DNA of 64,000 nt from a virus (IMGVR_UViG_2875499822_000002:24252-88251), one strand, 5' to 3'. Numbered from the stretch's first letter, positions 28,765 through 58,402 are shown. Made by a program: numbers and translations. The notes: generated by a model from the letters alone, not told the origin.

Positions 28765-29633
28765 ATCAACCTCAGCCCGTAAGTTTCAGTCGACTTACTG
28801 ACGTTAGGCACCACCAGGTAATCCACGCCATCGATCTCAATGACAGACTCAGCCGCGCGCCCCTGCGGAATCGCAACCACACCGTCCAGGTAACCCAGCC
28901 AAACCCCATCATCAGAATTCAGTGCATCGGTATCGGACGCTCTCCCTGAGCTCACTACCAGGGCCGGATACACGACCGCGCCGCCGTCAATCTTGCCCCT
29001 TAGCCGGTGGAATTTCCCGTCAAAGGGATGCACGTAGGCGTAGGAATATGAGTAAGGAAATTCGTTCGTGAACGCGCTGTTGCCGCCTGAATTCCCACCC
29101 ACGATCTGCCACGCGCCGGTCGGCAGGCAGACCTTCGGGCAGTATTGGTTGCCACCAGACATAAAAGGGTAGGCAGACTCCTTGGAGCCACCCAGCTCAC
29201 CCGACCCACCGATAAAGCAAGGGAACTGATAAGCCCTGTTCGATCCGAAAGGTAGGATCAACCCAGCATAAAACGAGTAGTAGCTTGAGCCAGCGCGAAT
29301 GACCCCGCACAACCGCCTGGAACTCACCAACGTCCAAACCTTCACTTCGCCGGCAGGCAGGACAAAGCGCGGCAGGAACGGCGAATACGCATAGCTAAAC
29401 CCACCTGCCTGACCGGCAACAGATTGCTCAGGATCGAAATCCCGGAAGGCCTGAACCTCAATCACTCCATCCTCGACCACAAACGCAACAAAGCCAGCAC
29501 TGCCCGGCAGCCCGAACACCTTTTCCGAAGAAGTGTCACGGACTACCGACCACCCGTTTGACGGCAAAAGATCAGTACAAAGAGATGTGAGCCAGTCTGC
29601 GCCACTGGCATAAGTAGATATAGCCACTGTCAT
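28761..29633 (-). CDS. Virion structural (tail tip) protein
   Basis: Follows the tape measure; YAG..LP..YQFP.FIGG and GYLDGV...IDGVDYLVVPNV motifs. Confidence 0.7.
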   Translation of the reverse strand: MTVAISTYASGADWLTSLCTDLLPSNGWSVVRDTSSEKVFGLPGSAGFVAFVVEDGVIEVQAFRDFDPEQSVAGQAGGFSYAYSPFLPRFVLPAGEVKVWTLVSSRRLCGVIRAGSSYYSFYAGLILPFGSNRAYQFPCFIGGSGELGGSKESAYPFMSGGNQYCPKVCLPTGAWQIVGGNSGGNSAFTNEFPYSYSYAYVHPFDGKFHRLRGKIDGGAVVYPALVVSSGRASDTDALNSDDGVWLGYLDGVVAIPQGRAAESVIEIDGVDYLVVPNVSKSTETYGLRLI

Positions 29634-29668
29634 TGTTATTATTCTTCTCGATCAGTAACTATATTTTA

Positions 29669-32449
29669 TCACATATTCTTTATCTCATTTCTGTTGGCGC
29701 GAATAACGTTCATGATCGCTGCCTCTCCATGAGCACCCTCCATAACGCTGGCGATGGACATCGAGTCAATCATGTTATTAACGGTAACTCTTGGCGCTTT
29801 ATCCACCTGCCTACTACTGCCCTTGCCAATATTCCATTGATGTCTCGGATCTGTAGTTGGAAGGATCTCCTCATTCTTTTCAAGGATTGCAGCTACTTCG
29901 TTAGATTTAAGCCCAAGTGTTCCTGCGAGCGCACCTTCGTGGTGATACTCCGCGTTAATGAATGCCAGGGGAGTTATATCCCTACTTCTCCCAACTCCGC
30001 CCGCCATCCCACCTTCGTGGTTCACACCCGCGCTGATCATTCCCATCAGGCTTCCCACACCCGCGCTGGCACCACCGGTATAGGCTGAGAGCATCGACTG
30101 GATGGCCAACTGAATCAGCAGTTTCGCAATGATCTTCGACACCTCAGTCAGGACGCCTTGAGCGAAGTCAGAGAACGCTTCTTTTGCGGACTTTGTCCCT
30201 GATATGAAGTCAGTGAACAGACCTTCCAATCCACCCTGCAGGCTGCTTGACACATTATCCGTCAGCGTCTGCAAATCGAATACTTCAGCCCGAGCGTCCT
30301 GGGCCGACTTTTTAACTTTGTCGAGATCTGCCGGGTTGCCGGTGACCTCGGCAGCTTTCGTGCCCCTTTCTTCCAGCTTGTTTGCTTGATCCAGATAGTC
30401 GAGCGGCGAGATCTGGTGCCTCTCCAACTTTGACTTCAAACTGGCGTACTGACGCTCGATCTCTTGCATCTCTGCCTGAGCTTTCTTCGCACTGATCAGT
30501 TTCTGGATTGCCGTCGAGTCTTCCCCGAGGCTCTCCATGTTTTTGATCGATTCCTTGAAGTCGGCCTCTATTTTCTTGATGTCAGCGCTGAACTGATCGC
30601 CGCCAATGGCCAGGAGCTCGATCTGGGCGTCAGATTTGATCTGAGCCAGTTGCTGTCTGATCTGTCCAACCTCTGCAGCACGGTCGGCTTTGAGCAAGGC
30701 GGACTGGTTGACGAGCTCTGCGCCGATAGTGGCTTGATCGGCTCGCTTGGAGGTGATGTCTGCTTCGAGTTGATTGATCGTTGCAAGGATGCCTGGTCGG
30801 TCATTTAGGTTCTGTGTGACTGCCAGGAGCTTTTGCTGTCCAGCAAGGCTTCCCTGGAGCGCTTTGATATCGACGTCGAGAGAACGCTTTTTCTGCTCGC
30901 TTAGATTCTTCGCAGCTTCCATTTCGATCCTGAACTTCTCATCAGCGATCTGAACTGCCGATAAATTTTCGCGACGAGCCCGTTCTTGCAGTTCGGAAAT
31001 CTCAACCTGTTTTTTTGTGTCGATCTTCGAAATGGTGATGTCGATCTCTTTTTTGGCGAGATCAGCCTGTAGTTGCGCCTGGGTCGCTGCAATGGCTGCT
31101 GATGCCTCAGCATTTTTGGTCTGGAGCTTTGCGATGTTTGCCTGGTTAGACTTGTCCTTTCTAGCCGCTAGCTCTTTCTGAAGATCGTCTTCGTTCTTAA
31201 TTACCTGAATCTTGTACTTATTAAGGAAGTCATCTGCGGCTTTCTCATCTTCATCGCTATTCAGGATGCGGAAGTTATCCTGGCCGACTTCGTGTAGTTT
31301 CTGTCTAAGCTCCTGTACACCCTTAATGGATTGGTCGATGTCACTTCTCTTGGCGACTTCAATCGGCTTTTTATACGATCCTTGGAGATCAGTGACGCCT
31401 TTCTGGAACTTCTTGATATTCTCTGAGGCACCAGTTAAATCAAAAGCGTCAGCGAAATTCTGAATCGGCTGGACAAACGTAGAATTGAAAAGCCCAATCG
31501 TGGTAGCAAACGCAGACCTGAAGACATTAGCCATCCCATTTGCTGTCTTGACGAAGCCAGCATCAATGGTGTCCAGGCCGCGCAGGAAGAGCTCCGCAGT
31601 AAATAACACGCCTTCGCCAAGGAAACTGAATACGACGTCGAACGTATCCTTTATCTTCCCTGCGAATACGAGCCCACCCAAGATGCCTGCAAACATGTCA
31701 GTAAACTTGTCGCCGATGCTCTTAACCGGAGCCCCGACATCAGTGGATATGTTTACTATTGACTCAGTCACCAGCTGTACTACCGCCGTCACTTGAGGCG
31801 ATAGGTCGGCAAGCATTTTGCTGAAAGCTGTGCTTCCGACTTTTTCAAGCTGGGCGAACGACTTTCCGAGCTTGCTAACAGCGATAGTTTCAGTGTCGCT
31901 CAGCGTCAGGTTGAAGCGCTTGGCTTCCTCCATGAGTCGCTTGAACTCTTCTCCACCATTTTTCAGTACGGGTAGAAGGTTTCTAAGGGCGTCAGAGCCG
32001 ATCTGGTCGAGAAAAGTAAATGCGGAGTTGTCCGACATGCCCTTCAGGGTTTCGGAGATCTTCTGCAACTGCTCAAGGGGATTGAGTTTATTGAATTTGG
32101 CAACATCAACATTCATAACCTCAAAGAAGTCGACGCCGCCGCCAGAGCCAATGGAGCTGAACTCCTCGACTTTGATCCGCACCTCATCAAGGGCATCCAG
32201 CAGTTGATCGGGCTGGACGTTCGCGCCGTTGAAAGCTGCATACTGTGCTGCCGTCAGATCTTCCATAGAGACGCCCAGGCGCTTTGCTGCAGCATCAAGC
32301 TCTGTCAGCTGATGAACAGTTTCCTTGATTGCGACAGCGCCCGCGAAGGCACCAACCAGGGCTGTGACCTTTGCCGTTGCACTTGTGAGTATTCCGGACG
32401 CTTCATCCTTTGCTTTGAGGATTAAATTGATTACTGCGCTGCTAGCCAT
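29669..32449 (-). CDS. Tail tape measure protein
   Basis: INLILKAKDEAS start, long helical body, C-terminal SAKEAFSDFA and HEGG..NEV.AILEKNEE motifs. Confidence 0.9.
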   Translation of the reverse strand: MASSAVINLILKAKDEASGILTSATAKVTALVGAFAGAVAIKETVHQLTELDAAAKRLGVSMEDLTAAQYAAFNGANVQPDQLLDALDEVRIKVEEFSSIGSGGGVDFFEVMNVDVAKFNKLNPLEQLQKISETLKGMSDNSAFTFLDQIGSDALRNLLPVLKNGGEEFKRLMEEAKRFNLTLSDTETIAVSKLGKSFAQLEKVGSTAFSKMLADLSPQVTAVVQLVTESIVNISTDVGAPVKSIGDKFTDMFAGILGGLVFAGKIKDTFDVVFSFLGEGVLFTAELFLRGLDTIDAGFVKTANGMANVFRSAFATTIGLFNSTFVQPIQNFADAFDLTGASENIKKFQKGVTDLQGSYKKPIEVAKRSDIDQSIKGVQELRQKLHEVGQDNFRILNSDEDEKAADDFLNKYKIQVIKNEDDLQKELAARKDKSNQANIAKLQTKNAEASAAIAATQAQLQADLAKKEIDITISKIDTKKQVEISELQERARRENLSAVQIADEKFRIEMEAAKNLSEQKKRSLDVDIKALQGSLAGQQKLLAVTQNLNDRPGILATINQLEADITSKRADQATIGAELVNQSALLKADRAAEVGQIRQQLAQIKSDAQIELLAIGGDQFSADIKKIEADFKESIKNMESLGEDSTAIQKLISAKKAQAEMQEIERQYASLKSKLERHQISPLDYLDQANKLEERGTKAAEVTGNPADLDKVKKSAQDARAEVFDLQTLTDNVSSSLQGGLEGLFTDFISGTKSAKEAFSDFAQGVLTEVSKIIAKLLIQLAIQSMLSAYTGGASAGVGSLMGMISAGVNHEGGMAGGVGRSRDITPLAFINAEYHHEGALAGTLGLKSNEVAAILEKNEEILPTTDPRHQWNIGKGSSRQVDKAPRVTVNNMIDSMSIASVMEGAHGEAAIMNVIRANRNEIKNM

Positions 32450-32453
32450 ATTA

Positions 32454-57796: not shown

Positions 57797-57799
57797 CTA

Positions 57800-58285
57800 T
57801 TACTCCAGAAACCGCACGCCAAACTTGGCGATCAACAACGAGTCGGAGATTCCATCGCGCACGGCACGCTTACCACCACGTGGTTTCTTGTAGATCTGGT
57901 CAGCATGGAACACCTCAAAAGCAATCTCAGCGAGCTGCTCCTTGGACAGCCCTGAGAGGCTCTGATAGCCGCGCCATTCCTGTGGCCTGGCATACCTCAC
58001 CTCGGGGCAGAGGCACTCAGCAATAGCCCTTACCACACCAAAAGAATCACCAAAACTGAACATCGAGACGACACCTTGCTTGGGCCGAGCACCGACAAGC
58101 TCAACAACAGCCAGGTCTGGCTCGTGCTGCGCAATAAAGTCAAAAACGGGACGCGGGTCTACCCGACGTTTTTTGCCGTCTAAGGAGACAGTTGGCATTT
58201 GAATGCAAGCAATTAAGTTAAATTGCTCGTCAATGATAGATAGACCACCAGAGAGTCCAGGATCAATCCCCAGGATTTTTCGCAT
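57800..58285 (-). CDS. RuvC-like Holliday junction resolvase
   Basis: ILGIDPG.SG, E..G.RP.QGV.S.FSFG, PQEW and DG..DSLLIA motifs. Confidence 0.85.
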   Translation of the reverse strand: MRKILGIDPGLSGGLSIIDEQFNLIACIQMPTVSLDGKKRRVDPRPVFDFIAQHEPDLAVVELVGARPKQGVVSMFSFGDSFGVVRAIAECLCPEVRYARPQEWRGYQSLSGLSKEQLAEIAFEVFHADQIYKKPRGGKRAVRDGISDSLLIAKFGVRFLE

Positions 58286-58402
58286 GTTGCACTCGTTCTT
58301 ATTATTCTTATGCTGATATTGTAACACTATTAACAGCTTTGTTTGTGCGCAAAAAAAGAGCCGTCGTGGCCCTTTGTGTTCTTTGCATCTTGCTGATGAG
58401 TG

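Follow-up and report, generated by a model that had tools for sequence, protein, structure and literature searches.

In Pseudomonas, carbon catabolite repression centres on Hfq acting together with Crc, and the genes described as being under this control serve catabolism, transport and virulence in the host. Where the Shine-Dalgarno (SD) sequence is weak, an A-rich 5' leader without structure can also replace or boost it, and translation in bacteria is enhanced via protein S1 by leaders that are A/U-rich or of the (CAA)n type; we know of no case in which an enhancer of the S1 type needs a three-nucleotide register. In the available excerpts of the published descriptions, the CA motif recognized in Pseudomonas is given as AAnAAnAA(nAA) and lies close to the SD (PMC5990048, PMC6422490), the distal face of Hfq accommodates 18 nt as six ARN triplets per hexamer (PMC6422490), and enterobacterial Hfq binds A-R-N trinucleotides that recur in association with the SD (PMC4104026). 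A literature search that covered mostly titles and abstracts returned no report of Hfq/Crc control of phage structural or lysis genes.

The present work describes A-rich leaders in a 64,000-nucleotide stretch of viral DNA (the window, meaning the whole of that stretch) which share features with each of these systems. The described CA-motif targets (amiE6ARN, amiE, rbsB and estA) likewise have, at their ribosome-binding site or overlapping it, a single-stranded stretch of as many as six A-R-N triplets on the sense strand, but they are host genes of catabolism or transport in which an operon usually has a single motif, whereas the phage carries a dozen leaders on structural, lysis and DNA-handling genes. 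At the N position the phage leaders mostly have U (403 of 950) and the host examples seen mostly have C, and the SDs of the phage are often weak or absent, unlike those of CA-motif targets. The CrcZ and CrcY RNAs (RF01675) carry several AANAANAA motifs which compete for the Hfq distal face, and the phage shares this pattern, but their motifs are gathered on one non-coding RNA while those of the phage are spread over many mRNAs. SD-adjacent A-R-N repeats are common to the phage and the enterobacterial sites, although the latter have no Crc partner. An unstructured A-rich 5' leader with a weak SD is likewise common to the phage and the S1-type enhancers, but the phage adds a dominant three-nucleotide register.

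Abundance, placement and rhythm of the tracts

The phage part of the window has a GC content of 50% within a setting of about 60% GC, and the identities of its genes were assigned using PHROGs and Pfam. The host is probably a Pseudomonas, judging from the names attached to homologues: capsid homologues are named from P. asiatica, P. helleri, P. juntendi and Stutzerimonas, all named relatives belong to Pseudomonas or Stutzerimonas, and related loci sit in Pseudomonas genomes.

The pattern AANAANAANAA has 28 matches in the window, compared to an expected count of 1.60 +/- 1.22 generated by 100 dinucleotide-preserving shuffles of the window, none of which reaches 28. Every one of these matches falls within the 50% GC phage part, beyond 16892, and the 38.6 kb of 60% GC DNA (contig 1..38651) contains none; the underlying eight-mer occurs 5 times in that DNA and 86 times in the phage part. 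The bare eight-mer is a weak marker, with only 5 of the 40 tracts of exactly 8 nt preceding a start. When overlapping matches are merged, 14 of 17 tracts of at least 11 nt, and all ten of at least 14 nt, end no more than 25 nt upstream of a start codon (counted as an ATG or GTG that opens at least 60 codons), against a background of 0.14-0.21 of positions. The three exceptions among the tracts of at least 11 nt lie within coding sequence on the plus strand (18108, 34315 and 46658), while the 14 start-proximal tracts, which are 11-17 nt long, are without exception A-rich on the sense strand.

The arrangement of the A residues exceeds what mere A-richness entails. Of the 11-mers with exactly 8 A, 19 have the periodic arrangement, compared to a mean of 2.0 over the 165 arrangements; for 14-mers with 10 A the count is 9 and the mean 0.16. 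A lag analysis of the non-A letters which used no preset pattern, applied to 118 unique leaders from 8 gene families, finds a recurrence with z = +17 at lag 3 and z = +7 at lag 6; the leaders of translationally coupled genes (n=130) give z = 3.3 at lag 3. The phase of the tract relative to the AUG is spread 32/31/46 over the three registers, so the register is not a coding one, and across the family the AA pairs are conserved but the letter at N is free to vary. The longest run per leader peaks at 5 triplets (42 leaders), with 22 leaders at 6 and 4 beyond.

Conservation and the leaders of individual genes

In a comparison set of about 30 relatives, whose capsids are 42-53% identical, the tracts precede the same genes (capsid, scaffold, tube, chaperone, tape measure, holin and portal), and 127 of the 135 unique runs of at least 5 triplets found family-wide precede the start of an open reading frame. 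Tracts are absent before translationally coupled genes, and in the relatives the eight-mer precedes none of the genes neck1 (0/25), spanin (0/14), g43107 (0/16) and terL (0/7). Matches number 0-5 per genome in ten other Pseudomonas phages and 0-9 in five enteric phages (lambda, P22, HK97, T7 and N15), and those examined in these two groups lie outside leaders (1 of 30 rows). The leaders are a trait of this clade, and their absence from the ten other Pseudomonas phages indicates that a host with Hfq/Crc does not generally select for them.

A first-pass annotation of the window had quoted nine leaders, and all nine are found immediately 5' of the genes it named, on the minus (mRNA) strand, on which the features below lie unless stated otherwise. 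The tract of a structural-protein gene (28761-29633) occupies 29633..29646 and enters the AUG with no SD between, and that of the tape measure gene (29669-32449) occupies 32451..32461, ends 1 nt before the AUG and is kept in 5/5 relatives. Leaders of six triplets followed by AAAGG stand before the tail chaperone-like gene (32762-33166; leader 33177..33193) and the P22-type major capsid gene (43517-44674; leader 44686..44702), with the eight-mer kept in 16/16 and 28/30 relatives, respectively. At 36098..36111, the major tail (tube) gene (35312-36085) has a leader that is kept in 23/25 relatives and is 95% identical to the capsid leader over 20 nt; a lysogen RNA-seq run places an RNA 3' end near it, at 36092. 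The leader of the holin gene, which is the first gene of the lysis cassette (39412-39624), lies at 39631..39644 and is kept in 9/11 relatives. In the leader of the scaffold gene (44755-45552; leader 45559..45587), the (AAN)n tract at 45577-45587, kept in 24/29 relatives, is followed on its 3' side by a conserved hairpin (45559-45573) which contains a G-rich SD and has 6 pairs, 3 of them with compensatory changes. The portal gene (53825-55141) has its leader at 55152..55165, kept in 7/13 relatives, several of whose starts are cut by locus ends, and the RuvC-like resolvase gene (57800-58285, with its true start at ATG 58285), which heads the ruvC-terS-terL block, has its leader at 58296..58309.

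Two further leaders that the same annotation had reported are located on the plus strand, one at 50438..50451 before a small unknown gene (50463-50702) in a plus-strand block, and the other, described as preceding mobC, at 16892..16905 before a NikA-like mobilisation gene, which probably starts at ATG 16917 and lies upstream of the relaxase gene (17207-18361). It was also correct that the genes it called element A lack such leaders. What did not survive is the restriction to virion genes. In addition to the RuvC-like and NikA-like genes and g50463, leaders precede the endonuclease-like gene (58403-59095; leader 59106..59116) and the unknown gene g46027 (45653-46027; leader 46038..46048, followed by the strong SD AAGGAG and kept in 8/12 relatives), and gene g57287 (56829-57287) is preceded by an A-rich tract at 57301..57314 that lies within the end of the terS coding sequence. 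Because non-virion genes also carry leaders, a gating of particle production is too narrow a description.

Many leaders stand 3' of extended -10-like promoters of their own, and the start-proximal tracts sit between the predicted -10 and the AUG. Such promoter-like sequences are TGATATGAT (33202-33210) near the chaperone-like leader, TGTTACAAT near the holin leader (39663-39671) and again 6 nt upstream of the RuvC-like leader (58318-58326), and TGATATTAT (45603-45611) near the scaffold leader, while TGTATAAT lies near the portal leader (55176-55183). The promoter cassette of the RuvC-like leader is repeated at 41307-41333 (repeat family D10), where TGATACAAT, also extended -10-like (41320..41328), precedes a gene (40770-41303) whose leader is just a short AAUAAG.

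Proposed Hfq/Crc control and competing explanations

The (AAN)4-7 tracts are read here as RNA elements that act in cis within the translation-initiation regions of the lineage and as candidate Hfq/Crc brake sites, a tentative reading that is judged to be only slightly more doubtful than probable. The distal face of the host Hfq hexamer would bind the tract with one ARN triplet in each of its six pockets, Crc would clamp the Hfq-leader complex as it does on amiE, and the 30S subunit would be excluded for as long as free Hfq/Crc was available. Translation of the late genes would proceed once Hfq was titrated, either by CrcZ/CrcY on non-preferred carbon or during slow growth, or alternatively by the flood of phage transcripts itself, and the genes so released would be those for the capsid, scaffold, tube, tape measure, portal and holin together with some DNA-handling genes. 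Binding of Hfq to the leaders is what its published specificity would predict; repression, the involvement of Crc and a coupling to carbon catabolite repression may follow by analogy with the known targets.

The geometry of the leaders is consistent with this reading. The gap between tract and AUG peaks at 10-12 nt (46 of 109 leaders), so that the tract adjoins the SD position, as CA sites do in the available excerpts of PMC5990048. The tracts are predicted to be single-stranded and accessible, the mean predicted unpaired probability being 0.605 in 14 motif leaders compared to 0.465 in 26 others (P ~0.001). The peak in run length lies near the six-pocket, 18-nt capacity given for Hfq in excerpts of PMC6422490, which would favour recognition by Hfq; the four leaders with 7-9 triplets are above the capacity of one hexamer and speak against it. 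Hosts of related prophages encode Hfq, Crc and CrcZ/CrcY: two Pseudomonas genomes with such prophages (G001 and G002) each have two RF01675 (CrcZ-family) matches and one Hfq, and a Crc orthologue is encoded in G001 (E 3e-139 to 4jg3) but was not located in G002. The 14-nt pattern of the phage leaders picks out CrcZ/CrcY in these hosts too (three of the matches in G001), and in G001 and G002 it also marks the leaders of genes for an alcohol dehydrogenase, an amino-acid permease, an MFS transporter and a GMC oxidoreductase. The proposal of Hfq/Crc control made in the first-pass annotation thus gains from the fit to the CA motif, the rhythm, the placement, the conservation and the Pseudomonas host, and loses its specificity for virion and lysis genes. 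Halting virion synthesis on a preferred carbon source is not obviously a good phage strategy.

The tracts could instead be A-rich, unstructured ribosome landing pads, that is, SD-independent or S1-assisted enhancers which offset weak SDs and have no selected role involving Hfq, an account that is possible but on the doubtful side. The SD core is no longer than 3 nt in 57 of the 118 motif leaders, 25 of which have none, and just 0-3 nt separate the tract from the AUG in 14 of 109 leaders, the tract entering it in some cases; weak SDs combined with tracts that reach the AUG imply that the tract itself must help ribosomes to start. Like the enhancers, the motif leaders are A/U-rich at weak SDs and are predicted to be less structured than other leaders, and they stand before abundant virion proteins (capsid, scaffold and tube), while accessory genes on the opposite strand, such as those at 34230 and 52783, use classical AAGGAG sites. 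A landing pad would, however, require A-richness and low structure rather than a strict three-nucleotide register, and the register is the strongest signal in the data. Low-copy proteins (portal, tape measure and resolvase) also have tracts, whereas coupled genes with equally weak SDs do without them, and (AAN)5-6 beside a start site is a published Hfq/Crc substrate, for which Hfq binding would be hard to avoid. Ribosome landing and Hfq control may coexist.

Hfq binding might also serve a selected role directed at the host or at a threshold. In this scenario, which we infer entirely and consider unlikely, a dozen late leaders would act in the manner of CrcZ and soak up Hfq: they would silence holin and virion mRNAs at leak level and, after induction, titrate Hfq, making late translation all-or-none and lifting catabolite repression, as a sponge distributed over mRNAs. 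Each genome does carry at least 12 tracts of at least 11 nt, with 4-6 triplets each, the CrcZ-family RNAs of related hosts bear the pattern of the phage leaders, and many leaders have the promoters of their own noted above. The low depth of late RNA in lysogens (~0-35, compared to ~250 for the accessory operon) points to leak or subpopulation transcripts that would need silencing, but this RNA-seq does not separate leak from spontaneous induction. An Rfam gathering search of the window gave no matches, and no dedicated sponge RNA of the CrcZ type, in which several CA motifs share a single non-coding RNA, was found there. A role at the level of DNA, whether as AT-rich nucleation sites for xenogeneic silencers of the MvaT/TurA type, as promoter parts or as linkers for module exchange, is highly improbable. 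It would suit the low GC content of the element within its setting, the status of the leader as the largest direct-repeat family of the region (6 copies of 20 nt), the mosaic modules (the relative L013 has 95% identity in the tube and 50% in the capsid) and the plus-strand promoter-like site whose -10 (TATTAT) is the complement of the holin leader, together with a plus-strand RNA that begins near 39672. The sense-strand orientation of 14/14 start-proximal tracts, between the predicted -10 and the AUG, argues against it, as do the freely varying N positions with kept AA pairs, which preserve no DNA hexamer, and the lack of enrichment in a sigma-70 two-hexamer scan and for the pattern TGNTANNAT. 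There is similarly little to be expected of operators for a phage-encoded RNA-binding translational regulator acting in the manner of T4 RegA in place of a host protein. The restriction of the trait to this clade and its absence from other Pseudomonas phages would fit such a regulator, and conserved small unknown proteins are encoded beside the head genes (g46442, g46027 and g43450), but no candidate RNA-binding domain appeared among the proteins scanned, and a three-nucleotide repeat extending over 15-18 nt would rather suggest the footprint of a ring protein such as Hfq than that of a monomeric operator binder.

Significance for the phage and its host

Should Hfq/Crc indeed act at these leaders, prophages in the P. 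putida group would produce particles and time lysis according to nutrient state or the availability of Hfq, and once induced they could reprogramme the catabolite repression of their hosts. Even as enhancers, the leaders would represent a compact, conserved and SD-poor design with a strict three-nucleotide register.

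The leaders and the prophage that carries them

The leaders, A-rich (AAN)n runs on the mRNA strand just 5' of start codons, are real, in that they are both highly non-random and conserved, and every leader quoted in the first-pass annotation was found on the mRNA strand immediately 5' of the gene named there. The 11-nt pattern AANAANAANAA has 28 matches in the window compared to an expected count of 1.60 +/- 1.22, which was generated from 100 dinucleotide-preserving shuffles of the window; all 28 lie in the phage part and none in the 38.6 kb of 60% GC DNA, and the leader constitutes the largest direct-repeat family of the phage region. 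When overlapping matches are merged and a start is taken to be an ATG or GTG opening at least 60 codons, 14 of the 17 tracts of at least 11 nt, and all 10 of those of at least 14 nt, end no more than 25 nt upstream of a start, against a background for such proximity of 14-21% of positions; the three tracts of at least 11 nt without a start nearby all fall within plus-strand coding sequence. Specificity is far lower for the bare 8-mer, with a start following just 5 of 40 tracts whose length is exactly 8 nt. The earlier description of the leaders as a property of virion genes holds to the extent that they are present there, but they are not limited to those genes, since leaders are also carried by the RuvC-like and endonuclease-like genes, by g46027 and g57287 (genes named by start coordinate, function unassigned), by g50463 and by the NikA-like mobilisation gene.

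The virus record comprises 88,251 bases, of which the window takes up the final 64 kb. Bases 1-14,300 of the window, together with the preceding 24 kb of the record, have a GC content of about 60% and encode a prim-pol, an S24 repressor-like protein, a hybrid histidine kinase, a response regulator and an integrase. The rest of the window, which begins at about 14.5 kb and has about 50% GC, is a siphovirus-type prophage with tail genes, tape measure, major tail protein, neck proteins and a holin-endolysin-spanin cassette, as well as P22-type capsid, scaffold, portal, terminase, RuvC-like resolvase and primase-helicase genes. Inside the low-GC element and adjoining the tail genes, genes for a DUF7380/DUF4209 protein and a MobA/VirD2-type relaxase form, together with the NikA-like gene, a mobilisation module at 14699-18361 (+) in prophage-like surroundings. 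The head module is divided by a 7.3-kb plus-strand block (46539-53790), which contains genes without assigned function plus a PIN_12 protein (52783-53790) and separates portal and terminase on one side from scaffold and capsid on the other.

The closest named homologues of the capsid are from Pseudomonas asiatica, P. helleri, P. juntendi and Stutzerimonas stutzeri, and the genomes with related loci are titled Pseudomonas sp., P. fuscovaginae and P. guariconensis, so the assumption of a Pseudomonas host is borne out. A megablast search with 18 kb of sequence detected no close relative among cultured phages, and tblastn of capsid and portal returned only relatives below 30% identity. Single-protein locus searches for relatives gave no matches; an alignment search with capsid homologues yielded 30 loci, three in genomes and 27 on viral contigs, with capsids that share 42-53% identity with that of the window.

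Triplet rhythm, anatomy and conservation

The signal in the leaders is a rhythm, more than A-richness. Among phage-part 11-mers with exactly eight A, the AAnAAnAAnAA arrangement occurs 19 times, compared to a mean of 2.0 over 165 arrangements, and in 14-mers with ten A the periodic arrangement occurs 9 times, compared to a mean of 0.16. In a pattern-free test in which each of 118 unique leaders (positions -35 to -5, eight gene families, window and relatives) was shuffled, non-A letters recur at lag 3 (z = +17) and lag 6 (z = +7), with fewer than expected at other lags; these z values overstate independence, the sequences being related, but the effect is large nonetheless. Where genes are translationally coupled, so that the leader lies in the coding sequence of the gene before it, the lag-3 z is only 3.3 (n = 130 leaders). 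A coding origin for the rhythm, as an upstream extension of the reading frame, can be ruled out because the register falls in all three phases relative to the AUG without preference (32/31/46).

When leaders are sorted by their longest run, five triplets is the commonest class (42 leaders), followed by four (31), six (22) and more than six (4), and in 9 of the 118 no run is present. The distance from tract end to AUG is 10-12 nt, which is the Shine-Dalgarno (SD) position, in 46 of 109 leaders, and 0-3 nt in 14 of 109. The SD core is at most 3 nt long in 57 of the 118 motif leaders, and the SD cores of coupled genes are just as weak; classical AAGGAG sites are found before opposite-strand accessory genes of the window (e.g. 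34230, 52783). Motif leaders have a predicted unpaired probability of 0.605 and a predicted minimum free energy of -8.9 kcal/mol, compared to 0.465 and -16.5 kcal/mol for other start regions of the window. The scaffold leader additionally contains, between its (AAN)n tract and the AUG, a conserved hairpin of the AAUCC-UCGGG-GGAUU type (45559-45573, minus strand) with a G-rich SD inside; three of its six predicted pairs show compensatory changes in 20 scaffold leaders from the window and its relatives. This hairpin may serve as an operator through which the scaffold protein regulates its own synthesis, which is known for the P22 scaffolding protein, or it could be a hairpin for the proximal face of Hfq.

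Conservation was measured in the relatives as presence of the 8-mer within 45 nt before the orthologous start. With start codons placed by a heuristic, so that individual counts may be off, the 8-mer is found before capsid in 28 of 30 relatives, tube in 23 of 25, chaperone in 16 of 16, scaffold in 24 of 29, holin in 9 of 11, tape measure in 5 of 5 and portal in 7 of 13 (several portal starts are lost at locus ends), and before neck1 in 0 of 25, spanin in 0 of 14, g43107 in 0 of 16, terL in 0 of 7, head-morphogenesis in 1 of 25 and endolysin in 1 of 26. Between relatives the leaders vary in length and in their N letters and the AA pairs are kept; judged by this comparison of orthologues, the leaders are conserved by selection. 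A census of unique (AAN)n runs across all 31 loci found that an ORF start is preceded by 150 of 526 runs with n = 3, 64 of 93 with n = 4, 83 of 88 with n = 5, 33 of 36 with n = 6, 9 of 9 with n = 7 and 2 of 2 with n = 9.

Against the 28 matches in the window, AANAANAANAA matches were counted in reference phages infecting Pseudomonas (D3 5, F116 0, PaP3 3, LUZ24 4, gh-1 0, F10 1, phiCTX 2, D3112 0, YuA 4, PAJU2 0) and enteric hosts (lambda 9, P22 1, HK97 3, T7 0, N15 5), and of 30 match rows examined, from seven of these phages, one precedes an ORF start. The expectation that leaders would be general in Pseudomonas phages and absent in enteric ones was therefore rejected, leaders being lacking in both sets, and because neither set has them the host comparison cannot separate a Pseudomonas-specific reader (Crc with Hfq) from a universal one (S1). 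On the genomes compared, the leaders are a lineage trait. In IMG/VR, (AAN)5AAAGG matches more than 115 loci; the first 80 listed are AT-rich (median GC 0.34) and do not include the window's clade, and 14 of these 80 listed matches precede an ORF.

Transcriptional context of the late genes

Extended -10-like sites (TGnTAnnAT) lie 6-25 nt upstream of the leaders of g29633 (29663-29671), chaperone (33202-33210), holin (39663-39671), g41303 (41320-41328), scaffold (45603-45611) and ruvC (58318-58326), and TGTATAAT is found at portal (55176-55183); all are on the minus strand and have no visible -35. A 27-nt cassette before g41303 (41307-41333) is repeated with 81% identity before ruvC (58305-58331). 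The extended -10 idea is based only on the position of the six minus-strand matches; a two-hexamer sigma-70 scan gave no enrichment (15 vs 14.2), and the sites are treated as a lead only, because TGNTANNAT overall is not enriched either (14 vs 18.8). The arrangement points to late genes organised as numerous short operons, every one under a promoter of its own and with a very short 5' UTR.

Public RNA-seq runs with the same species label cover the region and come from lysogen cultures only; strand data are from one stranded run, and run X24 appears unstranded. In the stranded run the late genes have depths of approximately 0-35, except for one bin at 114 over g36570, and this low level of late RNA is compatible with leak or spontaneous induction. 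RNA 3' ends pile up at 36092 (minus strand; 14 molecules at depth 66), between the SD and AUG of the tube gene and directly 3' of its (AAN)5 tract, and depth falls from 114 over g36570, upstream, to 3.5 over the tube gene; RNA processing, termination or protection of the end could each explain it. The strongest expression of the region (depth up to ~255) is that of an accessory operon at 33265-35279 (+), which sits between the tube and chaperone genes, has a sharp RNA 5' end at 33265, and encodes, with classical SDs, one unassigned protein, a histidine phosphatase (His_Phos_1) and an unassigned 349-aa protein. At 39618-39672 (+) there is a near-consensus promoter-like TTGACA-17-TATTAT whose -10 is formed by the holin leader's complement; in the lysogen, a plus-strand RNA with its start near 39672 spans 39.7-40.2 kb at depth ~81, running divergently from the holin gene and in antisense orientation to ORF 39816-40079.

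Candidate readers of the tract

The distal face of Hfq is described as having six tripartite pockets, with room for 18 nt in all (PMC6422490), and the CA site as AAnAAnAAnAA, often near the SD and essentially an ARN motif (PMC5990048). A 29-nt amiE fragment, containing six ARN motifs and the AUG, is reported to be enough for Hfq-dependent repression, with the 30S subunit excluded by Hfq/Crc and the proximal face of Hfq binding hairpins in targets (PMC9890229). The phage leaders resemble the CA targets of Hfq/Crc in sequence, length, position and predicted accessibility. In the portions of the literature available, no description of Hfq/Crc motifs in structural or lysis genes of phages came up, and the window has no Rfam matches.

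Both Pseudomonas genomes carrying related prophages (G001 and G002) encode Hfq, and G001 has a clear Crc orthologue, the ninth candidate checked; four ExoIII-like candidates (NCBIfam scan, one also against PDB) and four further Exo_endo_phos candidates (against PDB) were rejected as Crc. The 14-nt pattern, with 12 matches in the 49.6-kb phage part of the window, is rare in both, with 34 matches in 5.4 Mb for G001, where three matches fall inside its two CrcZ-family RNAs and others precede genes for an Fe-alcohol dehydrogenase, an amino-acid permease, an MFS transporter, a GMC oxidoreductase and an HU-like protein. The matches in G002 are mostly poly-A runs, but seven matches are on the prophage contig; long poly-A runs are numerous in this genome, in places with poly-C or N beside them (e.g. 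C2:61741, C15:51962, C20:26475), which inflates the match count and looks like a quirk of the assembly or of a repeat element.

The main rival to regulation by Hfq and Crc is that the tract is purely an A-rich landing pad for initiation. Since the SDs are weak or missing, the tract must itself help initiation, so an enhancer function holds at least in part and may explain the leaders entirely; as a complete account, it is a possibility that we hold with some reserve, the signal being a triplet rhythm. That the tracts act at the level of DNA is very unlikely, and we would give equally little credence to a reader encoded by the phage itself. The boldest reading that the evidence allows, in which the many tracts form a sponge or set a threshold, is improbable, if less so than these two. 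The reading that we tentatively favour, a plausible one held with limited conviction, remains regulation by Hfq and Crc, which was proposed at the outset as a gating by host carbon catabolite repression: the leaders would be putative Hfq distal-face sites, occupied together with Crc at translation starts, and the synthesis of the late proteins of this prophage lineage would depend on free Hfq/Crc.
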